Part shown: positions 6,496-64,000 of the stretch, in pieces
Layout of the letters: every line of letters begins with the position of its first letter
How positions within the stretch are numbered: position 1 is the first letter of the stretch
Source: a phage
Length of the DNA: 64,000 nt
Reading direction: 5' to 3' (one strand)
Sequence record: PZ452609.1
Notes under the pieces: model-generated
What the model saw: the letters and a program-made list of their open reading frames with translations, nothing else
Databases searched by the model: none
What the model was told of the DNA's origin: nothing
Program-made: the position numbers and the translations under genes

Positions 6496-9195
6496 TTAGT
6501 GAACCTCAAGCCAGCTTTTACCAACCTTACCAGTACCTGTAACAAGTGTTTCTTTCTTAAGACCTAAGTTTTTAGAAGCTTGTCCATAATACCAGTCAGT
6601 AACTGCTTTCACTTCTGCCGTCATACTTTCTGGACATTCCCAACTTGTTTCATCGTGATATGCGCAGAGCAAACGAGCACCAATAGCTGGTTGACGACCA
6701 TTCAATTTCATCAAACCTTCGTCAATCATACGACGACAAGCAAGGTTGATTGCCTCATTTTGAATCTGAGCCTCTGAACCCATCAAAAGGTAGTTCAACA
6801 GTTTGTGTGGAGATTTACACCACAACCAAGCTCCAGCAACCTTTACGAAGCCCCCTTTAGAGATTGCAGCGGTCTTACCAAACACCTCTTCAAGTGCCTT
6901 CTTAGTTGCTTTGTAGTCAGCTTCCAAGTTATCTAATAGTTTCTTAATCTTTGGCAAACGCACAAAGTAAGTCTGTTTAGTTAATGCACCTTCCTGAGTA
7001 GTGGCTGCCTTAATAGTTTTAGCAAACTTTTCATCACCTGCACCGAACAGTAGTGCATAGATACCATTCTTAGCTTTCTTACGACCTTTGCTAATCTCAT
7101 GAAGAAGATTCTCATCCTGAGTAGCTCGACAAGTCAAGATATCCTGCTCATCATTCAAGCTAAAGTAAATACTGTTCAGTGTATGTGCATCAGTCCCTGA
7201 ATAGACAACGTACAGGTCATTCTCAGAGTCATAGCGAAGGTACTTATCAATTTCTGGGTTTAGGTACTCATCAAAATGTTTGCAGTAATAGCGTCCATCT
7301 TCTTGACGAATAAACTCAATCTCTTCTTTACCTTGCGTTACCGCTTTGGTGAAGTCTTTGTCACCCATAAAGTTACAAAGGAGAACTAGCTGGGCTGAGT
7401 TCATGTCTACAGAGACAACATTAGTACCTTCTTCACAAATCCACACTGCCCTCATTGGTTCCCCATAGACAGCCGCACCAGACGGTACGTTTACAATACC
7501 ATATTGTGTCATACGTCCAGTTGAAGTACCAAATACCATTGCACCAGCACTAAGGCGACCATCTGGACGAATCTGGTTCAGCCAACCTTTCTCGTCATCC
7601 TTTGAGTTCTCAATAGTTCTGCGTCTGTGCATCAAAGTGTAGTACTTAGCAATCTTCTGTCCAAGCTCACCTTCAATCGTATCATAAGATGATTCAGTAA
7701 GTTTTGGTGAAGTACGGATTAAGCAAGGCTCAAGCAAATCTGTGTATTTCTTCACAGACCAGTTATGCTCAATGTACTGTACACCTTCATGCTCAACATA
7801 GCTCAAACCACACCGCTCAACCATTTCCTGCCACTTAGGATGCTTTGTAATCATCTTTTTATTGTCTTTGAAACGACAAACTTTGACAGGGCGACCATCT
7901 GAGTCTTTCTTGTAGTTCCAGTCATCTGGAATCCAACCAACTGATTTCAAGTAGTCTTTAACAACTGCTACCTGAGTCATACGAGAAACTTCAAACTCAA
8001 TTGGTGTATATGGTGCATCAATCAAACCTGTGTAGCGACTCGACTCAAGCTCAAAGTGGTTAACAACGTGGCTATTATAGTACTTCACAGTTTTGACTGT
8101 TTTTACTGGCTTCCAGTCTTTGCATTTCTTACCAATCTTTGCGTTCAACTCATTGCAAATTGCACGAGCATCCTTCATTGCTACAAAGCCTTCCTTGTAC
8201 TCTTCACCAGTTACAGAGTTGGTTGGTGTATAGCAATTTCTCTTTTCAATGTTAAAAATCTTTGTAGTTGGCTTACCAAATGGCTTGATTTCGTATGTCT
8301 GCATCTCACCGTTACGTACCTGTTGACGATACTTTGTTTTAGGGTACTTGGTAATTCTCTTCAGTCCATCTGCATGACCGAATGTTTCAACATACTCATT
8401 CCAAGCTTTTGCAAACTCTTCTCCAGTGACTTTACCTTTGGTCTTAATAGTTGGAGGTAGATGTGGTTCAACCTCTGAAGCAAGTTCATTAGTCAATTTG
8501 TCAAGCTCCTTTACATGGAACTCCATAAGCTCTTTATCAGCTTTCCAACCATTGATAGCCTGTTGGCTCATCCAGAAAGATGTCTCTTTAGCTCGCATGT
8601 AAGTTTCATAAGTGTCTATACCACACTTCTTAAGCTTGAGATACTCGTTATCAAGTGCCCGTTTAGTTTTGGCGTTAATACGGATATCTTCTACAACACG
8701 AGTGAAGATTTCTGCATTCCACACACCCCAATGCTCAATCTCTGGTTTACGAACACCAACACGAGCACCCCATGCAGCCAAACCATGAGCACCTTTATAA
8801 CCCTTTGGAGTTGGTCTATCCATCCACTGAACACGAGACTGGATAAGAGAGTCCTGAAAGAAATTACTCCACGGCTTACATTTTGGATTATCAAAGTTCC
8901 ATAAATCCGGTGCAATGTGATTGAAAACCCACCAGTCATAACCGAGACCATTATGGATACAAAGTCGTTTTGCCTTCAACGCAAACTCAATACCTTCACG
9001 TAATCCACCCTTGATGTACTTAGTGTACTTGTGACCGAGAATAGGCTCATCAGTAAAGACCCATACTGGTGGTTCTTCGTCGTCAGATTTGTAGTCTGCA
9101 AAAGCCATTACGTGAACTTTAGTGAACTCAAGGAGTAAACCATCAGTTTCTGTATCACCAACCAAATGTAAGTTTTTAAAATCTACGTTTTCCAT
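6496..9195 (-). CDS. DNA polymerase, family A (T7/PolI-like) with 3'-5' exonuclease domain
   Basis: Exo motifs GDTETDGL and HNGLGYDW; polymerase motifs K..KNGIYALLFGAG and YHDE; start placed at MENVDFKN with GAGGGA RBS. Confidence 0.85.
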   Translation of the reverse strand: MENVDFKNLHLVGDTETDGLLLEFTKVHVMAFADYKSDDEEPPVWVFTDEPILGHKYTKYIKGGLREGIEFALKAKRLCIHNGLGYDWWVFNHIAPDLWNFDNPKCKPWSNFFQDSLIQSRVQWMDRPTPKGYKGAHGLAAWGARVGVRKPEIEHWGVWNAEIFTRVVEDIRINAKTKRALDNEYLKLKKCGIDTYETYMRAKETSFWMSQQAINGWKADKELMEFHVKELDKLTNELASEVEPHLPPTIKTKGKVTGEEFAKAWNEYVETFGHADGLKRITKYPKTKYRQQVRNGEMQTYEIKPFGKPTTKIFNIEKRNCYTPTNSVTGEEYKEGFVAMKDARAICNELNAKIGKKCKDWKPVKTVKTVKYYNSHVVNHFELESSRYTGLIDAPYTPIEFEVSRMTQVAVVKDYLKSVGWIPDDWNYKKDSDGRPVKVCRFKDNKKMITKHPKWQEMVERCGLSYVEHEGVQYIEHNWSVKKYTDLLEPCLIRTSPKLTESSYDTIEGELGQKIAKYYTLMHRRRTIENSKDDEKGWLNQIRPDGRLSAGAMVFGTSTGRMTQYGIVNVPSGAAVYGEPMRAVWICEEGTNVVSVDMNSAQLVLLCNFMGDKDFTKAVTQGKEEIEFIRQEDGRYYCKHFDEYLNPEIDKYLRYDSENDLYVVYSGTDAHTLNSIYFSLNDEQDILTCRATQDENLLHEISKGRKKAKNGIYALLFGAGDEKFAKTIKAATTQEGALTKQTYFVRLPKIKKLLDNLEADYKATKKALEEVFGKTAAISKGGFVKVAGAWLWCKSPHKLLNYLLMGSEAQIQNEAINLACRRMIDEGLMKLNGRQPAIGARLLCAYHDETSWECPESMTAEVKAVTDWYYGQASKNLGLKKETLVTGTGKVGKSWLEVH

Positions 9196-26450: not shown

Positions 26451-26771
26451 ATGAGCAAAGTTTATAACACTCGTAAATTACAGATTTTCTTACTGTGCCA
26501 GTTTATGGCTAGAGAACATAACTCCTACTATTGTGGTACAGGATTCATTAGTGATAATGATGGCTCATATCTCCCATTCAAAGAGGCTGTAAAACTCTTC
26601 AATGAAGAGAAAAGCTCTGAGAAAGATATTGAAAAGGTTAAATTAACCTATAGTAAGAAAGATAAGAAGATTATCTGCCTAGATAACTTTGTGAAAGTTA
26701 CCAAAGAAACTAAAGAGTTAATGGAAGAAAGTGAAATTCCATTCACAAGAATCTTGAAAGTAGCTCAGTAA
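26451..26771 (+). CDS. hypothetical protein
   Basis: 106-aa ORF. Confidence 0.35.
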   Translation: MSKVYNTRKLQIFLLCQFMAREHNSYYCGTGFISDNDGSYLPFKEAVKLFNEEKSSEKDIEKVKLTYSKKDKKIICLDNFVKVTKETKELMEESEIPFTRILKVAQ

Positions 26772-27620: not shown

Positions 27621-28502
27621 ATGAAAACATCTATCCGTGTTACAGTTCATTCACCAACTAAAGGGACTCATGAAGAAGAGTTTAACATCGTCCAATTCCC
27701 TTCTGGTGAGATTGGTGGACACTTTTCGCCAGAGTTTGTTGATTTTACTGCTTATGCAGCATCATCCATCAACAATGTGATTATGATTGTAAAAGGTTAT
27801 GACAAGGACACATTGTTTGCTGTGGCACTTGCTAAAGAAGCAATTGATGATTTAATTCCTCATGATTATGCTTTAAAGACTGTCATCTTTTACTACTTAC
27901 CAAATGCACGATATGACCGTCACATGTTTAAAGGTGACGCAGCAGCTTTAAAGGTTTTTGCTAAACAGATTAATGCAATGGGATTTGGCGCAGTCTGTGC
28001 AGTTGACCCTCACAGCTATGTACCAGATAACCTGTTTAACTGCTTCCAGAGTATTCCTCAAAAGGAGATTGCAGTCCACTATGCAAATGACCCACTGGTT
28101 GATTACTTAGTAGCCCCAGATGCAGGTGCTGCTAAGAAGGTTGCAGAGACCGCTAAAGAGGTGGATAAACCATATATCACAATGTCTAAGGTGCGTAACC
28201 TTAAGACTGGTGAAATTACTGGTATGCGAATCCTTGATGATGTTGATTTGACAGATAAAACCGTCATGATTCTGGATGATATCTGTGATGGTGGTCGAAC
28301 CTTCATAGAAGCAGCTAAGCATCTCCGTGAAGCAGGTACAAAACGTGTGGAACTCTATGTAACACATGGTATCTTCTCTAAAGATGTTGAAAACCTTCTT
28401 GACAATGGTATTGACCATATCTACACTACAAACTCTTTAGGGGAAGCTAAAGACCGTGGCTTAACACATTATGGTCAAGTTACTGTAGCAAACCTTGATT
28501 GA
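27621..28502 (+). CDS. ribose-phosphate pyrophosphokinase (Prs)-like enzyme; candidate ADP-ribose pyrophosphokinase
   Basis: PRPP-binding-loop-like ILDDICDGGRT; ATG start with GAGAGAG RBS; immediately upstream of the Nampt-like gene. Confidence 0.7.
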   Translation: MKTSIRVTVHSPTKGTHEEEFNIVQFPSGEIGGHFSPEFVDFTAYAASSINNVIMIVKGYDKDTLFAVALAKEAIDDLIPHDYALKTVIFYYLPNARYDRHMFKGDAAALKVFAKQINAMGFGAVCAVDPHSYVPDNLFNCFQSIPQKEIAVHYANDPLVDYLVAPDAGAAKKVAETAKEVDKPYITMSKVRNLKTGEITGMRILDDVDLTDKTVMILDDICDGGRTFIEAAKHLREAGTKRVELYVTHGIFSKDVENLLDNGIDHIYTTNSLGEAKDRGLTHYGQVTVANLD

Positions 28503-30382: not shown

Positions 30383-30727
30383 ATGGACAACCTTTCCATA
30401 TGGTTTAACAATAAACCTGTACAACCGAAATACTTACAAGTTGCCTATACAGACATCCTTAAAGTTCTCGGTAAAGAAAAGTTTGAAAAGTTTTGTGAAG
30501 GTATCTACAATCACCACTGCCAATTTGCTACAAAAGAAGGTATGTTTGTCATAGAACAGTTCTTTGGCAGAGACCCAGATGACTACGAAGAGATTAGCTT
30601 TGTAATGAAATACATGATAGAGTATATTGAAAATCGTGGATTCGAAGTTAATCCTGAATTTTATGAACATGAGGGTGTACCTTTAGCAAAAGGTTTCGAT
30701 GGCATACTCATTAACTGGACTTGGTGA
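30383..30727 (+). CDS. hypothetical protein
   Basis: 114-aa ORF. Confidence 0.4.
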   Translation: MDNLSIWFNNKPVQPKYLQVAYTDILKVLGKEKFEKFCEGIYNHHCQFATKEGMFVIEQFFGRDPDDYEEISFVMKYMIEYIENRGFEVNPEFYEHEGVPLAKGFDGILINWTW

Positions 30728-35459: not shown

Positions 35460-36132
35460 TGAAGTCCTGTGCCACGCTTATGACTTACATCCTCATGAGT
35501 TAGGTCTTGATTCCTGTGTATGGACTCCAGAACAGTGTAGGGATTTTGAAGACACTGCAAGAGAAGTTGTATGTTCACTGGAAGAGTTCCACACATCAGA
35601 ACCAATTGTGAACGTTGTGGACAAAGAGACTGGACAAACTATAGGTGTAAGGCGCGATAGTTTAGTCATAGTCAATAAAGACCTTGTAGAAAAAGGTAAC
35701 CTCATCTTAGCAGATATTGATGGTGTTCTTACAAATTTTAATCACGAAGATTGCTCAACGGAATTGACTGATGGTTCATTCTCACAGTACACTAATCTTC
35801 TTGATTCTGTAAGAGCAAAGCCAACATATGTTTTCAACATTATTGATGCAATTGCAAATCATGCAGCAGTTGGACTCTTGACAGCAAGAGGTGAATCTCA
35901 GAGAATACCTACTGAGATGTTTTTAAGGCACAATATAGAGCATGATTACTTGCTTTTTATGCGTGGTTTTGGAACTAACTCTATAAGTGCAGAAAGTTTG
36001 AAAGTGAGGATGATTCAGTCTTGCATTCTTCCTTACTTTAATATAGTATGCTTTATAGAAGATACAGAGAATAATGTTCAGAAGGTAAACAGAATCCTTC
36101 CACACATTAAAACTATGTTAGTTAAACATTGA
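35437..36132 (+). CDS. hypothetical protein
   Basis: 231-aa ORF. Confidence 0.4.
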   Translation: MKKLKKSDEVLCHAYDLHPHELGLDSCVWTPEQCRDFEDTAREVVCSLEEFHTSEPIVNVVDKETGQTIGVRRDSLVIVNKDLVEKGNLILADIDGVLTNFNHEDCSTELTDGSFSQYTNLLDSVRAKPTYVFNIIDAIANHAAVGLLTARGESQRIPTEMFLRHNIEHDYLLFMRGFGTNSISAESLKVRMIQSCILPYFNIVCFIEDTENNVQKVNRILPHIKTMLVKH

Positions 36133-36143
36133 GAGAAGAACTT

Positions 36144-36608
36144 ATGAACAATATTATTACGGTAGCACTGGACGATACGGCAAACAAATCTGAAGTAGTT
36201 CGTAAAATGATTCAAGGTAACTTTGAAGGTAAAATTTTCCGTGCTGTTAATGTAAAAGCTGATGGTAGCATTCGTGAATATCGTGCATTGTTGAACGTTA
36301 AGAAGCACGTAAAAGGTGTTGGTTCAACGACTGCACACAAAGAAAACCTGATGACTATCTATGATATGGGTAAGGCTTCAGAGTTAGGTGCTGAAGGTAT
36401 CGTTAAAGAAGGTGCTCCGTATCGCTCTTTCAATCTGGAAACTACTCTTATGCTTTCCTTTACAAGTGGTTCCAAAACAATCACTTATCTCTTTACTGAT
36501 GCTGCAACGGTATCTGCTATTAAGGATAGCACTGTCAAAGCTGGCGTAGTTGCTGCTGCAAAAGCTTCTTCGATGGCTGCAAATATCCTTGCTAAAGTCC
36601 TCGGTTAA
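36144..36608 (+). CDS. hypothetical protein
   Basis: Start moved to MNNIITV with GAGAGAAG RBS; followed by terminator. Confidence 0.45.
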   Translation: MNNIITVALDDTANKSEVVRKMIQGNFEGKIFRAVNVKADGSIREYRALLNVKKHVKGVGSTTAHKENLMTIYDMGKASELGAEGIVKEGAPYRSFNLETTLMLSFTSGSKTITYLFTDAATVSAIKDSTVKAGVVAAAKASSMAANILAKVLG

Positions 36609-36620
36609 GGTTAAGATACA

Positions 36621-36641
36621 GGCTCCTTCGGGAGCCTTTTT
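36621..36641 (+). terminator. rho-independent terminator (UUCG-type loop)
   Basis: ggctcc-ttcg-ggagcc then ttttt. Confidence 0.6.
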
Positions 36642-38462: not shown

Positions 38463-39248
38463 ATGGGTATTGTAAAAATAATTAATGGTGATATCTTTGC
38501 CGCATTTGATAAAGGTAAGTTTGACATCATCGGTCACGGTTGCAACTGTATGAATTTAATGGGTGCAGGTATCGCTGACAAGATTTCTAAACTTTACCCA
38601 AAAGCATATGAGACCGATACAGAAGTTTATCTGTATGCAGGTGGTATAGGACACAAACCCTGTGAAAATTTACTGGGTAATTTCTCTGTAGCACGTTTAA
38701 AACAAGGTCGTATAGCTAACCTTTACACTCAGCTTAAGACTGGTAAAGATGCCCGATACAGTGCTTTAGAGTCATCTTTGAAACAGCTTAACAGATACTG
38801 TGAAGTTAATCAGTTGAAGAAGGTTGGTTTACCTATGATTGGTGCAGGTATCGGTGGACTTGACCCTCAAGCCGTCACAGTTATCATTAATCAGGTGATG
38901 AAGAGTGTAGATGTTTATCTGTATGTCTACGAAGGAGAGATGTACCACAAGTTACGCTCAGGTTGGAATAACTACTGTGAACCAGAATACTTTGCAGGTG
39001 TAGTAACGTTCAAAGATGATACAGTTACCCTCTTCAGACGAAGAAAAGGTAAGATACATCAAAGTAACCCTCCGGTTGAGAAGATGTCTCTAAGTAACGC
39101 TCTAGTTACCCACCTGTCGAAGAGCAATCACAGGATAGCCGTAACATTTGGCAGTGATGCAGATACATATATTTATGCAAGAACTGATGAGGATATCGAG
39201 ACGGTCTTCTCTTCACCAGAAGTTACCTTCTTAGACGCAAAGAACTAA
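38463..39248 (+). CDS. macro-domain protein (ADP-ribose binding/processing)
   Basis: GHGCNCMNLMGAGIA and a second GAGIGG glycine-rich motif typical of macro domains. Confidence 0.7.
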   Translation: MGIVKIINGDIFAAFDKGKFDIIGHGCNCMNLMGAGIADKISKLYPKAYETDTEVYLYAGGIGHKPCENLLGNFSVARLKQGRIANLYTQLKTGKDARYSALESSLKQLNRYCEVNQLKKVGLPMIGAGIGGLDPQAVTVIINQVMKSVDVYLYVYEGEMYHKLRSGWNNYCEPEYFAGVVTFKDDTVTLFRRRKGKIHQSNPPVEKMSLSNALVTHLSKSNHRIAVTFGSDADTYIYARTDEDIETVFSSPEVTFLDAKN

Positions 39249-39317
39249 GAAACTCTGTATAATATTCACAATAGACTAAGCCTTCTTTATCTGGTAAATT
39301 TTTCAGGTAAGGAGGGC

Positions 39318-39501
39318 TTTTTCATTTCAGGATTGTGCAGGTAGAGTTCTGTAGAGAAATCTGTAGAGAGAATTTTGAACTCCAAAGAGAAAATTCATTT
39401 TCAAACTGTGCAGGTAATCTCCAAAGAGCTTTTTCATTTTCAAAACGTGCAGACCCCGCTCAGGTCGGGCAAGAAAAATCATTTTAGAATCGTGCAGGTA
39501 G
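39318..39501. repeat. four direct repeats of about 22 bp (tcatttYcaNaaYYgtgcagg), iteron-like
   Basis: Copies near 39318, 39391, 39428 and 39474, followed by a polypyrimidine tract 39524-39553. Confidence 0.6.
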
Positions 39502-56244: not shown

Positions 56245-57660
56245 ATGAGCGAGTTATTTAAACATGCGCACCTTCATGCAGGTCGAACTGAAAATGGTGC
56301 TGTAAACCATACTTCATCAATGTCTGCTCTTGTAGACTTTTACAAAGCTGCTGGTTCAAGCCGTAGCAATGTAGAAATCTTACCAGACCTGTTCTACAAA
56401 GCTTTGCGTGAGGATGTTGATGTTGCAGTTCGTATTTTACTGCATATGCGAGATGTACGAGAAGGTATGGGTGAGCGTAAAGCCTTCAGAGCTGTTTTAC
56501 TTCAAGCGATTGAAGACAAAGTTTTAGAGTCTACGCAGGTTCTTCGCATTATGGATAAGATTGCAGAACTTGGTCGTTTTGATGACTTCAAAATCTTCGT
56601 AGGTACTCGTTTCGAGACAGATGCCTTCAAACATTTAGAAGCAGCATTACTAGACCCTGCAACAGCAGGTTTGGCGGCTAAGTGGTTACCACGAGTCAAA
56701 CCACGTCATAAGCAGTTTGTAAAACGTTTCTGCAAGTTTGCCAACTTGAGTGAGAAAGAGTACCGCACACTGTTGTCTGCACTATCTGATACAGTTGAGC
56801 AAAAAATCTCTGCTAATGAGTTTGGTAAGATTGACTACAGTAAGATTCCTTCACTTGCTGCTGCACGTTACCAAAAACTGTTTAACCGTAAAGATGGAGA
56901 GCGTTACAAAGCTTACATCGAGTCCTTATCAAAAGGTGAGACTAAGATTAACGCTGGTGCTGTTTACCCATACGATGTGATTAAATCTGTCAAGTATGGT
57001 AATGCAGATGTTGCTAATGAGCAGTGGAAAGCACTACCAAACTGGATGGCAGAAGGTGAAAACATCTTGTGTATGTCTGATGTATCAAGTTCAATGTCTT
57101 GGGTGAATTTTGGCTCCATTACTGCTCTGGATATTGGTGTATCACTTGCCTTGTATGTAGCAGAACGCAATACAGGTTGCTTTAAGAATGAGTTGATGGT
57201 TTATTCAACAAACCCTCACTTCATCGAACTGAGTGGTGATTTACGAAACCGTCATCGTCAGGTGATGCGACACGTTGAATATGGCTCAACTAACTTACAA
57301 GCAGCTTTTGACCGCATTCTTGAAACAGGTAAAAGAAACAACTTGACTCAGAAAGATATGCCAAGTAAGCTTATCATCTTCTCCGATATGGAGTTTAATC
57401 AGGTTGATGGAGCTAACGGTCGTACAAACTTTGAAGCAATTCAGAGTAAGTACAAAAAAGCTGGATATGAGATGCCACAACTGGTATTCTGGTACTTAGC
57501 AAACCGTAATGGTACTTGCGAAGTATCTGTTAAGGATAACGGTGTAGCAATGGTATCAGGGTTCTCTCCAGCCACTTTAAAAGCTCTGCTTGGTGGTGAG
57601 AAGTTTGACCCAATCAGTGTAATGCTCAAAGCAGTAATGATTGACCGTTATATCTGGTAA
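56245..57660 (+). CDS. Ro60-like protein (TROVE-like N-terminal region + von Willebrand A domain)
   Basis: C-terminal MIDAS-like DVSSSM..STNLQ..FSDMEF (vWA); N-terminal NGAVNHTSSMSALVDFYKAAGSS follows the Ro60 TROVE pattern G.V...T....L..F...GS; immediately upstream of the tRNA cluster. Confidence 0.5.
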   Translation: MSELFKHAHLHAGRTENGAVNHTSSMSALVDFYKAAGSSRSNVEILPDLFYKALREDVDVAVRILLHMRDVREGMGERKAFRAVLLQAIEDKVLESTQVLRIMDKIAELGRFDDFKIFVGTRFETDAFKHLEAALLDPATAGLAAKWLPRVKPRHKQFVKRFCKFANLSEKEYRTLLSALSDTVEQKISANEFGKIDYSKIPSLAAARYQKLFNRKDGERYKAYIESLSKGETKINAGAVYPYDVIKSVKYGNADVANEQWKALPNWMAEGENILCMSDVSSSMSWVNFGSITALDIGVSLALYVAERNTGCFKNELMVYSTNPHFIELSGDLRNRHRQVMRHVEYGSTNLQAAFDRILETGKRNNLTQKDMPSKLIIFSDMEFNQVDGANGRTNFEAIQSKYKKAGYEMPQLVFWYLANRNGTCEVSVKDNGVAMVSGFSPATLKALLGGEKFDPISVMLKAVMIDRYIW

Positions 57661-57678
57661 AAAGTTTTAAAAAGGGTA

Positions 57679-57707
57679 TTGACAATGTGTTTAATACCCT
57701 TTAATAT
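57679..57707 (+). promoter_or_regulatory. sigma70-like promoter upstream of the tRNA cluster
   Basis: TTGACA, 17-bp spacer, TAATAT. Confidence 0.45.
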
Positions 57708-57825
57708 GTTCTACATAGAAACGAAATGAGAGCTTTTCTAAGATGCTGAAAAATATTTTAAAAAAGTTCTTGACAACCACTAAAAAATAATGTTAAAGTG
57801 GTTACATAAAGTTTGAAAAGTTTAT

Positions 57826-57905
57826 CTCCGTTTAGCTCAGTCTGGTTTAGCAGCACTTGCTTTGGGAGCAAGGGGTCGAGGGTTCAAATCCTTCAACGGA
57901 GACCA
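57826..57905 (+). tRNA. tRNA-Pro (anticodon TGG)
   Basis: Hand-folded cloverleaf, anticodon loop ttTGGga, T-loop ggttcaaatcc, 3' CCA encoded. Confidence 0.7.
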
Positions 57906-57912
57906 AATTAAT

Positions 57913-57990
57913 GTTCCAGTAGACAAAATGGTAAAGTCACCACTCTTTCAAAGTGGATATTTGAGGGTTCAAATCCCTTCTGGAACGCCA
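57913..57990 (+). tRNA. tRNA-Glu (anticodon TTC)
   Basis: Anticodon loop ctTTCaa; acceptor gttccag/ctggaac. Confidence 0.7.
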
Positions 57991-58080
57991 GTTTTGACAG
58001 AAGACCAATTACAGCAAACTTAATCTACTCATCTGAAAGTTAATCGGACAAAGAAGATATTTGGTCTGGTCATTAAGAAT

Positions 58081-58157
58081 TGCGGGTATAGAGAAAGGGC
58101 GTCTCACATGTCTCATTAGCATGGTATCGGCAGGTTCGACTCCTGCACCCGCCTCCA
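58081..58157 (+). tRNA. tRNA-Met (anticodon CAT); possible 1:72 mismatch (initiator-like) or register ambiguity
   Basis: Anticodon loop ctCATta; T-arm gcagg-ttcgact-cctgc. Confidence 0.6.
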
Positions 58158-58241
58158 AATTTACAGAAGACCGTTTACAGCAATATTTATTAAATTTTTA
58201 GCGGAAAAAATTGAAATATACGGTCTGGTAATACTAAACAT

Positions 58242-58318
58242 GGTTAGGAAGCACATAAGGTATGTGCGGTCGCCTGTTAAGCGAATGGCACAGGGTTCGA
58301 ATCCCTGACTAACCGCCA
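58242..58318 (+). tRNA. tRNA-Asn (anticodon GTT)
   Basis: Anticodon loop ctGTTaa. Confidence 0.65.
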
Positions 58319-58387
58319 AATTTAGGAGAGAAGCGATTGCTCACCGATTTGTAAGGTACAAGTCCTTAGCCTGAATAGAAATTAAAT

Positions 58388-58475
58388 GTGTCGTTATCCC
58401 GTAGATGGTAGCGGTGGGGACTGTAAATCCCTTGTCATTGAGACTCGGTAGGTTCGACTCCTACACGGCACACCA
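58388..58475 (+). tRNA. tRNA-Tyr (anticodon GTA), long variable arm
   Basis: Anticodon loop ctGTAaa; about 14-nt variable arm. Confidence 0.7.
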
Positions 58476-58480
58476 ATAAA

Positions 58481-58558
58481 GGTTATGTAGTTTAATTTGG
58501 TTAAAATACTCCCCTGTCACGGGAGATGATGAGGGTTCAAATCCCTTCGTAACCGCCA
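58481..58558 (+). tRNA. tRNA-Asp (anticodon GTC)
   Basis: Anticodon loop ctGTCac. Confidence 0.65.
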
Positions 58559-58705
58559 ATTTTGAGAGGGCTATTTAGCCCCTCCCTTAAAGGGTTCTTA
58601 CGAGTATTCTTTAAAGGAGCAGAAGACCAAATACAGCAAGTTATTTAAAATTTCAAGCCAATTTAATTTTGAAAAATTTAAAACTTGGTCTGGCTCAACA
58701 AATTT

Positions 58706-58838
58706 ACAGAAGACCGTTTACAGCAAAACTTAAACAATCTATTTCTCCGGTAAAGAAAAGGCGAAGGTTCGATTCCTTCACTCGGCAGATGTCGAGTTGG
58801 TGTAATGGTAGCACTTAAGATGATAAACAACGGTCTGG
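58706..58838 (+). ncRNA. permuted tRNA-like element, candidate Y RNA-like (YrlA-type) RNA
   Basis: Order is anticodon-like stem-loop, T-arm gaagg-ttcgatt-ccttc, acceptor 3' strand actcggc, short loop, acceptor 5' strand gtcgagt, D-arm tggtgtaatggtagcac; enclosed by an 8-bp helix agaccgtt/aacggtct. Confidence 0.45.
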
Positions 58839-58840
58839 TA

Positions 58841-58982
58841 ATTATCTTTGTAGATAAGTTATTAAGCTTACCTGTGAGTATGCGACCACAAAGGGTGAAA
58901 GGGTAAATTCTAGATTTAAACCCAAAAAGGCACATCGCTACAGACCTTAAGCAAGTCTGGGTAGCTTATCTACAAAGATAAT
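58841..58982. repeat. 19-bp perfect inverted repeat enclosing about 100 nt
   Basis: attatctttgtagataag at 58841 and cttatctacaaagataat at 58963. Confidence 0.7.
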
Positions 58983-58987
58983 TTAAT

Positions 58988-59063
58988 GGAAGTGTAGCAG
59001 AATGGTGATGCGGCAGACTTTTAATCTGACAGGCGATGGGTTCGAATCCCTCCACTTCTACCA
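58988..59063 (+). tRNA. tRNA-Lys (anticodon TTT)
   Basis: Anticodon loop ctTTTaa. Confidence 0.65.
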
Positions 59064-59141
59064 AATTCACCCTTAACTAAGAAACACCTGCGCGGCTGGA
59101 AACACCCACTCAACAGTTTCTCTAACTAGGGTACTTATTCT

Positions 59142-59218
59142 GGTTCAGTCGCAGATAAGGTAATGCAAGGGTCTCATAAGCCCTATGAATGTGGGTTCGA
59201 TTCCCATCTGAACCTCCA
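59142..59218 (+). tRNA. tRNA with CAT anticodon (Met or lysidine-type Ile2)
   Basis: Anticodon loop ctCATaa. Confidence 0.65.
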
Positions 59219-59219
59219 A

Positions 59220-59295
59220 GCTGGTATAGTTAAGAAGGTTATAACACTCCCCTGATAAGGGAACATCGGTGGTTCGATTCCACCTACCAGTACCA
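59220..59295 (+). tRNA. tRNA-Ile (anticodon GAT)
   Basis: Anticodon loop ctGATaa. Confidence 0.65.
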
Positions 59296-59310
59296 ATTTC
59301 AATAAAGTTG

Positions 59311-59339
59311 TTGACATTGAGATGTGACTACTTTATAGT
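59311..59339 (+). promoter_or_regulatory. strong sigma70-like promoter inside the tRNA cluster
   Basis: TTGACA, 17-bp spacer, TATAGT. Confidence 0.55.
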
Positions 59340-59570
59340 AACCTTAGTTTTCGTTGCGTAGCGTCTATTTTGCAAATTTAAAATAAATGCAAACGACAAT
59401 GTTTTTCTGGCAGTAGCTTGATAGGCTAAACACCAGTGAGGTCTTCCAATCCCTCATCAAAGAATTTGGCGTACTAGCCCACGGTATGATTAATAAGGTG
59501 GGCAACATTCTAAAGGGTATCCCTTATGGGGCTTGGCTTAAATGCAATGAGTACCCTTTAAAATGTTAAT

Positions 59571-59647
59571 GCACCCTTAGTTCAATTGGATAGAGCAACG
59601 GTCTTCTAAATCGTTAGTTACAGGTTCGAATCCTGTAGGGTGTGCCA
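59571..59647 (+). tRNA. tRNA-Arg (anticodon TCT)
   Basis: Anticodon loop ctTCTaa. Confidence 0.7.
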
Positions 59648-59795
59648 ATTAGTTAGCAGATTACTTAGACGACCTAAGCGGGTCTTCCTGTAGGGAGGTG
59701 GTCTGTATCTCATGTTTTCCAGAACATGTAAATAATCTGAGAAGGGGCTTTACAGTGTTGAGATAATACGGTAAGCTTCGAATTATAGTTTTAAT

Positions 59796-59866
59796 AGGGG
59801 TGAGCTATGGCAGCAATAGAGTCTCCAAAATTCTTGATTAGAGTTCGAATCTCTACACCCCTGCCA
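59796..59866 (+). tRNA. tRNA-Trp (anticodon CCA) with shortened D-arm
   Basis: Anticodon loop ctCCAaa; T-arm tagag-ttcgaat-ctcta; only about 71 nt. Confidence 0.5.
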
Positions 59867-59880
59867 GAAAAGGTGCTTGT

Positions 59881-60285
59881 ATGAAACTTTGTAGAAAATG
59901 TTCTCAAGAGAAGCCTTTAAGTTGCTTTCATAAAAGAGGGAATGGCTATCAGTCTGCTTGCAAAGATTGTAAAGCTAAGTACTCAGCAAAGAGATACAAA
60001 GAAGACCCTACTTATAAAGCAAAAAGGAAAGTTAGAGCAAAATATGACAAAAAGAGAAACAGAGAGTTCCTTAGTAGATATAAAAAGTTTTGCAAATGCA
60101 GAATATGTGGTGAATCCGAGCCAGTAGCTTTAGATTTTCATCACTTAGACCCTAAAGAGAAAGATTTTGCTCCAAGCAATCTTAAGACTTACTCTAGGGG
60201 AACTATTAAGCGTGAAGTTCGTAAGTGTGTTGTGCTTTGCTCAAACTGTCATAGGAAAGTTCATGCAGGACTGTTAAGTATTTAG
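59881..60285 (+). CDS. HNH endonuclease embedded in the tRNA cluster
   Basis: Cys-rich N-terminus plus FHHLDPKEKDF..CSNCHRKVH HNH motif. Confidence 0.7.
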   Translation: MKLCRKCSQEKPLSCFHKRGNGYQSACKDCKAKYSAKRYKEDPTYKAKRKVRAKYDKKRNREFLSRYKKFCKCRICGESEPVALDFHHLDPKEKDFAPSNLKTYSRGTIKREVRKCVVLCSNCHRKVHAGLLSI

Positions 60286-60298
60286 CAGTCTTATTAGG

Positions 60299-60388
60299 GG
60301 TAGGTAGCGGCTAATGGTAGCCAAACTGTCTTGAAAACAGTTGCCACTGTAGAGATACGGTGAGGGTTCGACTCCTTTACTTACCGCC
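60299..60388 (+). tRNA. tRNA-Ser (anticodon TGA), long variable arm
   Basis: Anticodon loop ctTGAaa; variable stem-loop gccactgtagagatacggt. Confidence 0.7.
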
Positions 60389-60642
60389 TAATAAGATTTA
60401 AAGCCAAGCTTCATTCGGATGTTGCTTTGGTATACCGCGTGTATTGTTGTACACACTGATAAAACACCTAGTAGGTGTCACGGAGAAGAGATAATATCAA
60501 GCTCTCCAAAGGTTCTAGTCACCGGATTAAACAAGACTATGCAAAGGCCTTTTTAGGTCTTTTAGAGGGCTTCTAAGGTCATTACAGCTTGTTGTGGAAC
60601 CTTGTTGCTTAGGTTCTTAGAAGTTCTCTAAAAAGGTTTAAT

Positions 60643-60721
60643 GGGAGATTGACGGCAACTTGGTAGACCTATCTCGCTTAGAACGAGATGCTTGAGGGTT
60701 CGAATCCCTTGTCTCCTACCA
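60643..60721 (+). tRNA. tRNA with TAG anticodon (Leu-type) but short variable arm
   Basis: Anticodon loop ctTAGaa; T-arm gaggg-ttcgaat-ccctt; irregular D-arm. Confidence 0.5.
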
Positions 60722-60728
60722 AATTAAT

Positions 60729-60804
60729 GCAGGTGTAGCAAAATGGTTATGCGGCTGACTCTTAATCAGTAAGACGATGGGTTCAATTCCCTCCACCTGT
60801 ACCA
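60729..60804 (+). tRNA. tRNA-Lys (anticodon CTT)
   Basis: Anticodon loop ctCTTaa. Confidence 0.65.
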
Positions 60805-60810
60805 AACAAT

Positions 60811-60886
60811 GGGGTCATAGTTTATATGGTTAAAATTCGAGTTTTGCAAACTTGGGAACTGAGTTCAATTCTCAGTGACTCCACCA
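60811..60886 (+). tRNA. tRNA-Ala (anticodon TGC)
   Basis: Anticodon loop ttTGCaa; G3:U70 wobble pair in acceptor stem. Confidence 0.75.
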
Positions 60887-60892
60887 ATTAGT

Positions 60893-60967
60893 GCATCCAT
60901 AGTTTAAACGGGAAAATTACAGTCTTCCAAACTGAGGTTGAGGGTTCGATTCCCTCTGGATGCTCCA
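60893..60967 (+). tRNA. tRNA-Gly (anticodon TCC)
   Basis: Anticodon loop ctTCCaa; discriminator U. Confidence 0.65.
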
Positions 60968-60974
60968 AATTAAT

Positions 60975-61050
60975 GCTCCTATCGTATAATTGGTTATTAC
61001 GGTTGCCTTGTAAGCAACTTATCAGGGTTCGAGTCCTTGTGGGAGCACCA
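60975..61050 (+). tRNA. tRNA-Thr (anticodon TGT)
   Basis: Anticodon loop ctTGTaa with perfect 5-bp anticodon stem. Confidence 0.7.
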
Positions 61051-61146
61051 ATTCAGAGGTCAAGTGAAAGACCGCTTTGAGTCAACTGAAGACCGTAACA
61101 AATTCCACGAAGTTGAGTTAGCGGCACAACTTCAGACCTCTTTCAT

Positions 61147-61221
61147 ACTCGCTTAGTTTATATGGTAAAACATCACCCTTACAAGATGAAGAAAAAGGTT
61201 CAAGTCCTTTAGTGAGTACCA
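61147..61221 (+). tRNA. tRNA-Val (anticodon TAC)
   Basis: Anticodon loop ctTACaa. Confidence 0.6.
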
Positions 61222-61222
61222 T

Positions 61223-61300
61223 GTTCCAGTATCCCAATTGGCAGAGGATGCAAGCTCAAACCTTGTATTAGTGACGGTTCGAATCCGTCTTGGAACACCA
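61223..61300 (+). tRNA. tRNA with CAA anticodon (Leu-type) but short variable arm
   Basis: Anticodon loop ctCAAac; T-arm gacgg-ttcgaat-ccgtc. Confidence 0.5.
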
Positions 61301-61305
61301 ATTTT

Positions 61306-61381
61306 GCAGGATTAGTTCAAATGGAAAGAGCAACAGTCTACGAAGCTGTTAATAGGGGTTCGAATCCCTTATCCTGCGCCA
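61306..61381 (+). tRNA. tRNA-Arg (anticodon ACG)
   Basis: Anticodon loop ctACGaa. Confidence 0.7.
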
Positions 61382-61398
61382 GATAAAAAGGTGATACT

Positions 61399-61641
61399 AT
61401 GCAAACATTAACAGTAGTTGAACATGAAAACTGTGAGAGTATTGAGTTTGTCAGGGTCATTGGTGTTGAACACCACATTTTCTTAAAAGTGGGATACTTA
61501 TGTGACCCCGCTAGAGTAGAAAGCTTTATACGTGATTGTTTTGGTGGTAGACATCTGAAGAGTGTTATTTTTGAGACAGTTTTACCAGAAGGTTTAGAAA
61601 CGAATAATAACATTTACCTCCTTACGAGGATTAGACAATGA
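61399..61641 (+). CDS. hypothetical protein (inside tRNA cluster)
   Basis: 80-aa ORF with AAGGTGA RBS. Confidence 0.45.
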   Translation: MQTLTVVEHENCESIEFVRVIGVEHHIFLKVGYLCDPARVESFIRDCFGGRHLKSVIFETVLPEGLETNNNIYLLTRIRQ

Positions 61642-62195
61642 GATACTTAAAGTATGCTTCATGGATTTTCTTAGCTTTGTTAGAGCCATTTGCAGCAATC
61701 TTAGCAGTTATCTTAGCACCTTTTGTAGTTCCATTCTACAGTGAGAAGAAAGGACACTTACCTTTCGGGTTCAGATGGATGGAGACTTATGACAACCCAA
61801 TTGATGGTGATGCAGGTCATATCAAACGATGGGCTAAGATTAGAAAGATTGGTAAGCTTGGTGTCTACATGCAGAGAGTTGGATGGCTCTGGAGAAACAA
61901 AGCTTATAACTTCTCTTACCATGTATTAGGAAGAGATGTAAAAGATGTTACTAAGTGGAAAGGTAATATCAACGTAAGTTCTAACCCTGAAGATAATCAG
62001 ACTGGTTATCTCCTAATGTGGAACAGTAATGCTTGGGGATTATTCGCTTTTGTGCCGTCAATCAAAATCTTTGGTAAACAATTTTACTGGAGAATTTATG
62101 TTGGGTGGAAACTTAAAAGTGTTGTCCCAGAAGAAAGAGCATTTTCAAGGGAAAGAGTTATGTTGGCATTCTTTATTCATCCACTAAGAAAGTAA
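61638..62195 (+). CDS. membrane protein (inside tRNA cluster)
   Basis: 185 aa with N-terminal TM segment. Confidence 0.45.
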   Translation: MRYLKYASWIFLALLEPFAAILAVILAPFVVPFYSEKKGHLPFGFRWMETYDNPIDGDAGHIKRWAKIRKIGKLGVYMQRVGWLWRNKAYNFSYHVLGRDVKDVTKWKGNINVSSNPEDNQTGYLLMWNSNAWGLFAFVPSIKIFGKQFYWRIYVGWKLKSVVPEERAFSRERVMLAFFIHPLRK

Positions 62196-62203
62196 AGATT
62201 TAA

Positions 62204-62279
62204 AGGGGATTAGTTTACAAGGTTAAAACCTCGGTCTTTGAAATCGAAGAAGTTGGTTCAATTCCAACATCCCCCGCCA
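62204..62279 (+). tRNA. tRNA-Gln (anticodon TTG)
   Basis: Anticodon loop ctTTGaa. Confidence 0.6.
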
Positions 62280-62281
62280 AT

Positions 62282-62360
62282 GCTCCATTACTCCAATTGG
62301 CAGAGAGGCCAGACTTAAAATCTGTGTTATGTATCGGTTCGAATCCGATATGGAGTACCA
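62282..62360 (+). tRNA. tRNA with TAA anticodon (Leu-type) but short variable arm
   Basis: Anticodon loop ctTAAaa; T-arm atcgg-ttcgaat-ccgat. Confidence 0.5.
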
Positions 62361-62365
62361 AATTT

Positions 62366-62441
62366 AGCGGTATAGCATAACTGGCAATGCAGCAGTCTCT
62401 GAAGCTGTCCTATTAAGGTTCAAATCCTTATGCCGCTGCCA
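62366..62441 (+). tRNA. tRNA-Gln (anticodon CTG)
   Basis: Anticodon loop ctCTGaa. Confidence 0.55.
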
Positions 62442-62472
62442 CTTCTAAGGATTCTTACGAGAGTCCTTAAAT

Positions 62473-62548
62473 GTGGCCTTATCATAAATGGTAATGACCC
62501 ATGCTGTGAACATGGTCTATACGGGTTCAAATCCCGTAGGTCACCCCA
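62473..62548 (+). tRNA. tRNA-His (anticodon GTG)
   Basis: Anticodon loop ctGTGaa with perfect anticodon stem. Confidence 0.7.
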
Positions 62549-62553
62549 ATTTA

Positions 62554-62630
62554 TAGTCCAAGTAGCTTATATGGTTAAAGCGCGTGTCTGAAAAACATGA
62601 GAAGAGGGTTCAAATCCCACTGGACTACCA
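62554..62630 (+). tRNA. tRNA-Phe (anticodon GAA), irregular acceptor register
   Basis: Anticodon loop ctGAAaa; D-stem gctt/aagc. Confidence 0.55.
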
Positions 62631-62646
62631 ATTTCAAAGGTGCTTA

Positions 62647-63381
62647 ATGAAAGAGATGACAGAACAAGGTAAGGAGATTTTCAATCTCTTAAAAACCGGT
62701 AAAGGGTTTTCTAACCCCCTTATTACTGGTGCAGCAGTTCTCGGTGGAACCGTAGCTGCCTCTACATCACTTGTAAGCTCTATTAGTTCTGTATCAGACC
62801 CTACAGTAAAGGATAAGATTGTTGCTGCTGGACTTACAACAGTTCTGCTTAACAGCTTTACCACGAGTCTGACAAGCACTACATCAACTACCAAAACACT
62901 AACAGATTACGGTCAAAAGTCCATTGATGAGTTTTCATCACGTATGCAGGTAGCAAAAGGTTACTCTAATGTTATGGGTGCAGCAGGTGAACAAGTTGGC
63001 TGTACACCATTTAGTGGTATTATGGGTGTTGCTACAGAGTATGGTCAAAAAGCTATTGATACGATTAACAGTGCACTAGATAGTGTTAATGGTGTGTTAA
63101 GTGACTTACAAGATGCTATTGACAAAGGTCTTGATACTATTTCTGATTTAGCTGAGCAAGCTGTTAGTAAGATTAATGAAGGTATTTCAAAAATTACAGC
63201 TTATGCAGATGAAGTTGTGCAGATGATTGAAGAAGAAGCTGCTCTTATTGCAGAGTACCTTAAAACGAATATCAATGGGTTCTTAGCAGGTATCTTACCA
63301 GACTGGTTTGATGATGCTTGTAAAACTGGTGTAATTGACACTATTGCAACACCAGAAATGAAGAACGCATTACAGAAATAA
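62647..63381 (+). CDS. hypothetical protein, Ser/Thr/Ala-rich
   Basis: Start moved to MKEMTEQ (AAAGGTG RBS) because the track start overlaps tRNA-Phe. Confidence 0.5.
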   Translation: MKEMTEQGKEIFNLLKTGKGFSNPLITGAAVLGGTVAASTSLVSSISSVSDPTVKDKIVAAGLTTVLLNSFTTSLTSTTSTTKTLTDYGQKSIDEFSSRMQVAKGYSNVMGAAGEQVGCTPFSGIMGVATEYGQKAIDTINSALDSVNGVLSDLQDAIDKGLDTISDLAEQAVSKINEGISKITAYADEVVQMIEEEAALIAEYLKTNINGFLAGILPDWFDDACKTGVIDTIATPEMKNALQK

Positions 63382-63383
63382 AT

Positions 63384-63476
63384 GGAAGATTAACCCTAAA
63401 AGGTAAGGGAGCAGTTTGCTAAACTGCCAGTAGCTGAGAAATCGGTGTACCAGTTCAAGTCTGGTATCTTCCTCCA
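63384..63476 (+). tRNA. tRNA-Ser (anticodon GCT), long variable arm
   Basis: Anticodon loop ttGCTaa; long variable stem-loop. Confidence 0.7.
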
Positions 63477-63480
63477 ATTT

Positions 63481-63556
63481 GAATCCGTGACAGAAACGGC
63501 TATGTGCCTGTCTGCAAAACAGGTTTATAAGGGTTCGAGTCCCTTCGGATTCTCCA
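63481..63556 (+). tRNA. tRNA-Cys (anticodon GCA)
   Basis: Anticodon loop ctGCAaa; discriminator U. Confidence 0.7.
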
Positions 63557-63593
63557 AGTTATTTTACTCTCTCTCAATTAAAATAATAATAAT

Positions 63594-63654
63594 GCCCTGC
63601 TATAAGTATTCTTCCTTTCGCTACCGAAGAGTATTTTTAGACAGGGCTTTTTTA
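63594..63654 (+). terminator. rho-independent terminator closing the tRNA cluster
   Basis: Long imperfect hairpin gccctg...cagggc followed by tttttt. Confidence 0.6.
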
Positions 63655-63778
63655 CAGAGTTATACTTTATAGGAAGACTTATACAGTATGTCTCTGACGT
63701 ACATTGTGGTTTCTCCTTGACGGTCTCTGTGCCGTCTTTTTTAAGGGGAAACATGGTTAACTATTTGGAGAAAACATA

Positions 63779-63979
63779 ATGAGCGAGACCGTTTATAAAG
63801 AACTTTATGAAGCTAATAAAAAGCTAGAATTTATGCAGAATACTATCATGGCAATTGCAGACAGATTGTCTGTAGCAACAGGTATTGATATTAAAGAAGC
63901 ATCTATGGATGCACTTCTTGATGCTGTTGATGCAAAGTTCGAAGTTAAGAAAGAAGAGACTGCTACAGACTCTGAATAA
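63779..63979 (+). CDS. hypothetical small protein
   Basis: 66-aa ORF. Confidence 0.4.
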   Translation: MSETVYKELYEANKKLEFMQNTIMAIADRLSVATGIDIKEASMDALLDAVDAKFEVKKEETATDSE

Positions 63980-64000
63980 TTCTATTTGCGGAGGTGCTTA

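Follow-up and report, generated by a model that had tools for sequence, protein, structure and literature searches.

Candidate type I leucine tRNAs in the tRNA cluster of a Felix-O1-like phage

A tRNA cluster with three armless leucine tRNAs

The DNA analysed here, a stretch of 64,000 nucleotides (nt) in sequence record PZ452609.1 that we call the window, comes from a Felix-O1-like myovirus (Ounavirinae, Felixounavirus) of the Escherichia coli/Salmonella phage group and is approximately 98% identical to phage wV8. Its plus strand carries a cluster of 27 tRNA genes that covers all 20 amino acids (57826..63556; ARAGORN, Rfam), and three of these genes, with the leucine anticodons UAG, CAA and UAA, lack the long variable arm. 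When positions 57600-64000 were compared by megablast with 50,697 phage records, 412 records matched, the best of them (~98% identity) being the E. coli O157 typing phages 8 and 11 and wV8. By coordinates, the window lines up with wV8 from ~56.6 to 88.5 kb followed by 1-32 kb.

All three genes lie on the plus strand, have A73 and an encoded CCA end, were found by both ARAGORN and Rfam, and are of type I: tRNA-Leu(UAG) at 60643..60721 (79 nt, variable loop UGCUU of 5 nt), tRNA-Leu(CAA) at 61223..61300 (78 nt, variable loop AUUAGU of 6 nt, G1-C72) and tRNA-Leu(UAA) at 62282..62360 (79 nt, variable loop GUUAUGU of 7 nt), the last with G1.U72 and C2-G71 as in E. coli leuZ. A first-pass annotation, made by folding the sequences by hand, had described leucine anticodons combined with variable regions of 5-7 nt and left two explanations, either unusual class-I-like leucine tRNAs or a wrong anticodon. 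ARAGORN placed the three tRNAs at the same coordinates, gave the same anticodons (which excludes the second explanation) and measured variable loops of 5, 6 and 7 nt without any pairing; no overlooked long arm came to light. The long arms noticed by hand in the serine and tyrosine tRNAs were likewise recovered, as paired arms, by ARAGORN and folding in tRNA-Tyr (58388-58475, 88 nt), tRNA-Ser(UGA) (60299-60388, 90 nt) and tRNA-Ser(GCU) (63384-63476, 93 nt), all on the plus strand.

A four-arm cloverleaf without an extra arm was obtained for each of the three leucine tRNAs by ARAGORN, Rfam and RNAalifold, and an extra arm would find no room because the molecules measure only 78-79 nt with CCA counted in. 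In the Rfam tRNA model RF00005 they scored 47.5 (UAA), 44.0 (CAA) and 30.5 bits (UAG), all above the gathering score of 29; the cloverleaf of this family, with a 7-bp acceptor stem, a 5-bp anticodon stem and a 5-bp T stem, was found in these three and in the tRNA-Trp of the same cluster. Class II tRNAs are recognized by a variable region of more than 10 nt that forms a stem-loop, and none of the three leucine tRNAs has one. All three instead agree with the type I tRNA-Leu of Fan et al. (2019), which is defined by a leucine anticodon, ordinary D and T arms, and an unpaired variable loop that is short but no shorter than 5 nt, with nucleotide 48 counted in (PMC6614811). Unconstrained minimum free energy folding recovered the acceptor, anticodon and T stems of the UAG and CAA tRNAs, with 3 unpaired nt left between the anticodon and T stems and the anticodon helix lengthened to 7-8 bp. 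The T-loop is UUCGAAU throughout and thus contains U54-A58, U55 and C56.

The D-arm of tRNA-Leu(UAG) is atypical. It comprises 22 nt (UGACGGCAACUUGGUAGACCUA) with a D-stem of only 2-3 pairs, the weakest in the cluster, and the gene also has the lowest general tRNA score there. In the homologues from Felix O1a, SUSP1 and Arno162 the D-arm is 21 nt long. Relative to the copies of Felix O1a and SUSP1 (L001 4044-4121 and L002 4043-4120), the window gene is altered in the D-arm alone, by one additional nucleotide, a U-to-C change through which one D-stem pair is lost, and an A-to-G change.

Leucine identity elements

According to a review, E. coli leucyl-tRNA synthetase (LeuRS) reads A73, A15-U48, G18G19, A20a and contacts of the D-loop with the T-loop, needs neither the anticodon nor the long arm, and stays active on armless variants (PMC9976931). 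In the CAA and UAA tRNAs the D-arm has 20 nt and a layout identical to that of E. coli leuZ, leuX and leuW (U8, N9, a 3-bp stem, a 13.22 mismatch, then A14 A15 U U G18 G19 C A20a G21); with U48 and A73 also present, the E. coli identity set is complete in both. In the UAG tRNA all identity bases are there, yet the 22-nt D-arm with its weak stem makes the register of G18G19 uncertain.

A73, U8, A15, U48 and the encoded CCA occur in all 11 distinct leucine tRNAs of the Ounavirinae loci compared in the next section. In a wider collection (at least 181 distinct viral and at least 142 distinct genomic type I leucine sequences), A73 and U48 were present in 99-100% of type I leucine tRNAs and likewise in type II leucine tRNAs; the figure for other class I tRNAs was 36-56%. 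The viral and genomic sets were gathered with a D-loop motif taken from the tRNAs under study, which makes D-loop statistics partly circular; A73 and U48 lie outside the search pattern, and these two as well as positions 9, 12, 13 and 23 are free of the circularity.

As a stand-in for isotype scoring, a covariance model (Leu-II) was built from 44 long-arm leucine tRNAs without the search motif and run over positions 57500-63800. Despite the absence of the arm, the three tRNAs ranked first (UAA, 56.5 bits), second (CAA, 53.2 bits) and fifth (UAG, 45.9 bits) among the 27 of the cluster. Compared with the general Rfam model they gained 9.0 (UAA), 9.2 (CAA) and 15.4 bits (UAG) and were the sole gainers among the 24 tRNAs matching the Rfam model, the other 21 losing 6-36 bits. 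Identity bases and model scores thus support the assignment of the three molecules as leucine tRNAs of type I, that is, the first of the two explanations offered in the first-pass annotation: a leucine identity set is present and the cloverleaves hide no arm. G1.U72, considered at one point as a hallmark of these phage tRNAs, was dropped, for it is found in 31-37% of viral leucine tRNAs of both types and in leuZ.

Conservation within Ounavirinae

Six Ounavirinae loci were compared, namely the window, Felix O1a, SUSP1 (Suspvirus), Maleficent (Mooglevirus), Pectobacterium phage Arno162 and Erwinia phage phiEa104 (Kolesnikvirus). Every one of their 17 leucine tRNA genes is short (77-79 nt), and the serine and tyrosine tRNAs are long-armed; a comparison with related phages, suggested at the outset, thus bore out the short form. 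The leucine tRNAs of T4, T5 and the rV5-like phage Ro1 measure 85-89 nt and have paired arms, and those encoded by leuZ, leuX and leuW of E. coli K-12 measure 85-87 nt with arms of 13-15 nt. Among the enterobacterial phages compared, the armless state is specific to Ounavirinae. This pattern is not due to chance, because 17 of 17 genes are short, compared with approximately 10-15% in an unselected viral sample (leucine tRNAs with this D-loop, scanned for any variable length and listed in the same order as in the other scans).

The 11 distinct leucine tRNAs of these loci contain eight versions of the acceptor stem, with all 77 positions paired and three to five kinds of pair at each; in the anticodon stems 50 of 55 positions pair, and in the T stems 54 of 55. 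RNAalifold returned the four-arm cloverleaf with both-sided changes in 20 of the 21 consensus pairs, and canonical pairing amounted to 94.4%, as against 59.8% (maximum 69.3%) with shuffled partners; the underlying alignment was anchored on the ARAGORN parse and leans towards that structure. No difference separates the CAA and UAA genes of the window from those of Felix O1a, SUSP1 and Maleficent (100% identity), although the aligned clusters are only 96% (Felix O1a), 88% (SUSP1) and 87% (Maleficent) identical to that of the window. Covarying stems and conserved genes both point to selection on these molecules as tRNAs.

Distribution and origin of armless leucine tRNAs

To survey viral contigs and a genome collection, a structural pattern was used that combined the leucine D-loop, a CUNAR anticodon loop and GGTTCRA, with a gap of 14-16 nt corresponding to a variable loop of 4-6 nt. 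At least 120 stretches matched in each of the two sources. Nearly all of the viral matches listed were tRNA-Leu with loops of 4-6 nt according to ARAGORN. Among the 120 genomic matches listed (L247-L366), 87 were tRNA-Leu(UAA) with a 5-nt loop (e.g. GCCCCCAUAGCCCAAUUGGCAGAGGCAGCGGACUUAAAAUCCGCCAAGUGUCGGUUCGAGUCCGACUGGGGGCA), mostly stand-alone genes of Nocardia, Mycobacterium, Gordonia, Arthrobacter, Rothia, Bifidobacterium and other Actinobacteria; examples are Nocardia mikamii (L251), Mycobacterium sp. (L252) and Paenarthrobacter (L257). With the gap set to 17-21 nt, for variable regions of 7-11 nt, most matches were class II leucine tRNAs with small arms. Armless leucine tRNAs, at times several per locus, were also seen in metagenome-assembled genomes of Planctomycetota, Acidobacteriota, Bacteroidota and Cyanobacteria.

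A review states that the arm is missing from tRNA-Leu in animal mitochondria only (PMC9976931), and this is contradicted by the chromosomal armless tRNA-Leu of Actinobacteria and other phyla. A paper on Mycobacterium tuberculosis mentions long loops in only three of its five leucine tRNAs, and Fan et al. (2019) describe almost all bacterial tRNA-Leu as type II (PMC6614811). The premise of the first-pass annotation that tRNA-Leu is normally class II therefore stands as a majority rule and fails as a general one, armless forms being frequent in phages and Actinobacteria; the textbook view that every leucine tRNA has the long extra arm is contradicted as well. Our literature search found the term 'type I tRNALeu' in Fan et al. 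(2019) only, and no description of a phage type I tRNA-Leu. Type I tRNA-Leu as such has already been described; its armless form is common in phages and Actinobacteria.

With the variable region removed, viral tRNA-Leu(CAA) sequences of one lineage (loci such as L055, L096, L103, L108 and L119) have cores 88-97% identical, and their variable regions measure 6, 7, 8, 9 and 10 nt. Because near-identical cores carry such a series, arms shrink stepwise and repeatedly in phages, and the boundary between type I and type II is a continuum there. Stepwise shrinkage from type II relatives in some viral lineages also rules out a single origin of all armless leucine tRNAs.

No type II sequence comes close to the Ounavirinae leucine tRNAs: once the variable region is taken out, the best core identities are 64-78%. 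The CAA and UAA tRNAs of the window share a core signature, A9 / C12-G23 / C13.A22, which is found in five of the six Ounavirinae tRNAs with a 20-nt D-arm and in at least 60 viral and at least 92 genomic type I sequences, actinobacterial chromosomes included, typically together with loops of the form NCAGU or NNGUU. The signature classes listed for 271 viral type II leucine tRNAs, the core of which is G9 / G12-C23 / R13.A22, do not include it. Since this signature is shared and a close type II relative is lacking, the CAA and UAA tRNAs belong to a coherent type I class and are not freshly truncated type II molecules. The UAG tRNA of the window does not fit the layout of the signature.

Comparison with known leucine tRNAs

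The closest described counterpart is the type I tRNA-Leu(CAA) of Streptomyces coelicolor, a bacterial-type cytoplasmic tRNA with a loop of 5 nt; both the LeuRS of that species and human mitochondrial LeuRS leucylate it (PMC6614811). Like the phage tRNAs, it combines a short unpaired loop (ACAGC) with normal D- and T-loops and exists alongside class II serine tRNAs; ACAGC is similar to NCAGU, a loop found in type I leucine tRNAs of Ounavirinae and Actinobacteria. It differs in being chromosomal and one of five isoacceptors, the other four of which are type II, whereas all phage leucine tRNAs are type I. It also has C48, and its LeuRS makes no use of A73; in the phage tRNAs U48 and A73 are both retained, and two of them have loops of 6-7 nt. 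Moreover, the phage tRNAs would need an enterobacterial LeuRS, the kind of enzyme that failed on the Streptomyces tRNA.

With E. coli leuZ, leuX and leuW the phage tRNAs share the 20-nt D-arm layout, U48, A73 and CCA, and with leuZ also G1.U72. The bacterial tRNAs differ by their arms of 13-15 nt and by the core G9 / G12-C23 / G13.A22, and the phage cores are merely 55-62% identical to theirs. Neither the UAA nor the CAA gene had a BLAST match in 5,426 E. coli genomes. The leucine tRNAs of T4, T5 and Ro1 are similar in lying within tRNA clusters and in having A73, an encoded CCA and a leucine-type D-loop, but they are 85-89 nt long and have a paired variable arm. Animal mitochondrial tRNA-Leu carries a short variable loop and A73 (PMC9976931), as the phage tRNAs do; it depends on its own LeuRS and has a degenerate elbow of D- and T-loops, in contrast to the canonical G18G19 and UUCGAAU T-loop of the phage.

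Charging and codon supply

We consider it likely that the three genes are functional type I leucine tRNAs which are charged by host LeuRS and supply codons to the phage, with expression, charging and use in translation being what we infer from the sequences. They would be transcribed together with the 27-gene cluster, with their CCA ends already encoded. The LeuRS of the host (E. coli/Salmonella) would aminoacylate them through A73 and the elbow of D- and T-loops (U8-A14, A15-U48, G18G19 and A20a), the long variable arm being dispensable for this enzyme. The serine and tyrosine tRNAs would have stayed long-armed since seryl-tRNA synthetase (SerRS) and bacterial tyrosyl-tRNA synthetase use these arms, and the armless leucine form is a trait inherited by the whole subfamily Ounavirinae.

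The anticodons would serve leucine codons far commoner in the phage than in its host: UAA would read UUA and UUG, CAA would read UUG, and UAG would read CUA and CUG or possibly all CUN codons. In 59 open reading frames (ORFs) of the window (G+C 38.4%), leucine is encoded by UUA (24.8%), UUG (15.2%), CUU (27.6%), CUC (6.5%), CUA (10.1%) and CUG (15.8%). In E. coli about half of the leucine codons are CUG. Because the codon usage of the phage departs from that of its CUG-rich host, the three anticodons fit its excess demand.

As for the charging enzyme, a phage-encoded synthetase, LeuRS included, was looked for among the large ORFs of the window and among the genes annotated over the initial 50 kb of wV8 and was not found; together the two stretches make up all of the genome except ~6.6 kb. 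ORFs of at least 450 amino acids (aa) in the window include DNA polymerase A, a primase-helicase, NrdA, NrdD, a NAPRTase-family protein and a 471-aa DUF2828 protein; one further ORF of this size has no Pfam match and aligns by coordinates with rIIA of wV8. Charging is assigned to host LeuRS because no phage synthetase was found in the parts covered.

Several points weigh against this reading. First, Fan et al. (2019) report that E. coli LeuRS failed to leucylate the type I tRNA-Leu(CAA) of S. coelicolor, and describe the enzyme as one that charges type II only (PMC6614811). The Streptomyces tRNA, which carries C48 in place of U48 and comes from another phylum, may lack E. coli identity elements, and this may explain its rejection. 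Second, a variable loop as long as 6 or 7 nt is out of the ordinary among class I tRNAs. Third, functionality is least secure for the UAG tRNA, judging from its poor D-stem, its 30.5 bits and its fifth rank on the leucine model. Fourth, no data on the expression or charging of these tRNAs from the phage came to light.

A second reading, compatible with functional tRNAs charged by the host, is that loss of the arm is itself adaptive, leaving the phage leucine tRNAs unseen by toxins or nucleases that grip the arm, or by a mischarging SerRS, so that leucine decoding would survive an attack on class II tRNAs of the host. We regard this as unlikely. The repeated shrinkage of viral leucine arms (the series of 6-10 nt) and the armless share of 10-15% among sampled viral leucine tRNAs are in agreement with it, and an arm-dependent bacterial toxin does exist, MenT3, which acts on tRNA-Ser (PMC11541572). 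However, no E. coli or Salmonella defence is known to target tRNA-Leu via its arm, the serine and tyrosine tRNAs of the phage are still long-armed, and armless tRNA-Leu is chromosomal in Actinobacteria, where evasion of defence is no obvious driver. On the side of the adaptive reading, C2-G71 is a SerRS antideterminant of E. coli tRNA-Leu (PMC9976931), and two of the three phage tRNAs have lost it, as would be expected once the risk that comes with the arm is gone. The same data can be explained by a deletion bias where constraint is relaxed. Just as unlikely is the broader proposition that arm loss would be a counter-defence or fidelity strategy and phages a main reservoir and vector of a distinct, ancient type I class that enterobacterial LeuRS charges.

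Less credible still is that the three genes are decaying or non-functional relics, i.e. former class II leucine tRNAs whose arm was deleted and which are now unused. Their Rfam scores are among the lowest of the cluster, the UAG gene of the window has additional D-arm changes relative to Felix O1a and SUSP1, and another type I tRNA-Leu was rejected by E. coli LeuRS, all of which would be expected of relics. Against this, the trait has been kept in five genus-level lineages (Felixounavirus, Suspvirus, Mooglevirus, Kolesnikvirus and the unclassified Arno162), with compensatory changes, fully paired acceptor stems, and CAA and UAA genes identical across three genera; identity elements and CCA are intact, and these phages carry no other leucine tRNAs. 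Equally improbable are decoys, regulators or primers that carry leucine anticodons but are charged with another amino acid or not at all: although the same cluster does hold at least one clearly non-translational tRNA-like element (~58700-58850), the three tRNAs have no G3.U70 (alanine) and no long arm (serine, tyrosine), the anticodon is needed by the other synthetases that accept A73, leucine specificity is seen both in the D-arm layout and in A15-U48, and only these three gain on the leucine model.

tRNA-Trp and the HNH cassette

The first-pass annotation had also reported a shortened D-arm in tRNA-Trp, and this is indeed the case. The gene (59796..59866, plus strand; ARAGORN, Rfam 33.2 bits) has the anticodon CCA, a length of 71 nt, a compact D-arm and a 4-nt variable loop. 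Between its acceptor and anticodon stems lie 15 nt (usually 19-21), with a 3-bp D-stem (GCU/AGC) and a 5-nt D-loop, AUGGC, that still contains GG. Its sequence reads AGGGGUG...CACCCCU-G-CCA with the anticodon loop CUCCAAA and thereby keeps A1-U72, G2-C71, G3-C70, G4-C69, G5-C68, G73 and CCA, in line with bacterial tryptophan identity rules (PMC9976931).

Directly downstream on the same strand lies an ORF of 134 aa (59881..60285) with weak Pfam matches to HNH_2 and AI2M-like_HNH, both below the curated cut-offs; in wV8 and SUSP1 this ORF is annotated as an HNH endonuclease. tRNA-Trp and the HNH ORF occur in approximately 23 of 117 matching phage records, the others retaining just a 30-nt upstream flank, and most relatives are without any tRNA-Trp. 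The two genes thus behave as one cassette that is sporadically present or absent, with a candidate compact tRNA in it. The SUSP1 copy differs from that of the window by one D-loop substitution. The nearest relative outside the group is the tRNA-Trp of Vibrio phage K567, compact but canonical (74 nt, 4-bp D-stem, 7-nt D-loop); because it is 74 nt long, the window tRNA-Trp would represent a further reduction by 3 nt.

Other elements of the cluster region

Two sigma-70-like promoter matches (TTGACA-17-TAATAT and TTGACA-18-TAAAGT, 10/12 each) lie on the plus strand at 57679..57799, both within a duplicated 27-nt box (repeat D6) directly upstream of the first tRNA gene; across the tRNA region the total of promoter-like matches is no higher than in shuffles. 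A terminator-like hairpin follows the cluster on its 3' side. The best promoter-like match of the region (TTGACA-17-TATAGT, 11/12) is located at 59311-59339, inside the interval 59296-59570. Downstream of it, between tRNA-Ile and tRNA-Arg, is a stretch of ~230 nt without an ORF of at least 50 aa. Here Rfam matches to tmRNA and to permuted tmRNA stayed below threshold (29.2 bits against a gathering score of 47 for the permuted form), and by analogy with T4 and T5, which encode small RNAs in their tRNA regions, it may encode one as well.

The anticodon CAT is found on two tRNA genes, 58081-58157 and 59142-59218, the second of which adjoins tRNA-Ile(GAT); the first has no RF00005 row in the Rfam table. 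One of them may be an initiator or a lysidine-dependent tRNA-Ile2 instead of an elongator tRNA-Met. The wV8 RefSeq entry (NC_012749) marks tRNA-Tyr (26485-26572), tRNA-Trp (27798-27868) and tRNA-His (30473-30548) as pseudo 'tRNA-OTHER'. They correspond to the window genes at 58388 (Tyr), 59796 (Trp) and 62473 (His), for all of which ARAGORN gave normal identities, and tRNA-His scores 53 bits in Rfam despite the pseudo mark. The three armless leucine genes are labelled plain tRNA-Leu there, with no comment, and other GenBank records likewise give such genes just as tRNA-Leu.

The region 57990-58850 contains four copies of a 34-nt box, CAGAAGACC-N3-TACAGCAA (at 57990, 58156, 58612 and 58699), each with a partner GGTCTGG 36-105 nt downstream. 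The boxes are kept in Felix O1a, SUSP1 and Maleficent and absent from Arno162 and phiEa104. The fourth (~58699-58850) folds into a long closing stem that encloses a permuted tRNA-like core, where a closed acceptor-like hairpin is accompanied by a T-arm (GAAGGUUCGAUUCCUUC) and a D-arm; this is the architecture of bacterial Y RNAs (YrlA). Directly upstream of the boxes lies the 471-aa ORF (56245-57660), which has DUF2828 and DUF7788 matches in Pfam and a vWA-like DVSSSMS motif, and whose relatives are annotated as 'RNA-binding protein'. Judging from these features, the protein may be Ro60-like and have a Y RNA as its partner. Chen et al. (2014) described YrlA-like RNAs in 22 phages in a search confined to genomes with TROVE-annotated proteins (PMC4201824). 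In the region of the boxes, Rfam returned no Y RNA match and the published GNCGAA motif was not evident, and a PDB sequence search with the protein gave no match, so that Ro60 and Y RNA identity stays unproven.

In wV8, a polynucleotide kinase and a phosphatase are annotated at 4139-4804 and 6854-7639, for which the extrapolated window positions are ~35980-36640 and ~38690-39480. The combination of kinase, phosphatase, tRNA cluster and a possible Ro60/Y RNA pair hints at a module for RNA repair or quality control.

Implications

The window belongs to a family of E. coli/Salmonella phages whose leucine tRNAs are solely armless, and no synthetase was found in the genome parts covered. Fan et al. 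(2019) call the bacterial type I exception rare (PMC6614811). If the phage tRNAs are charged, natural type I molecules would be substrates of enterobacterial LeuRS despite the published generalisation, the earlier failure would be traceable to particular nucleotides, C48 for example, and studies of LeuRS recognition would gain natural test substrates in these compact tRNAs. A widespread type I architecture with a core signature of its own bears on tRNA annotation and on models of class II tRNA evolution. For the phage itself the ordinary reading applies, according to which the three tRNAs would supply codons that are rare in its host.

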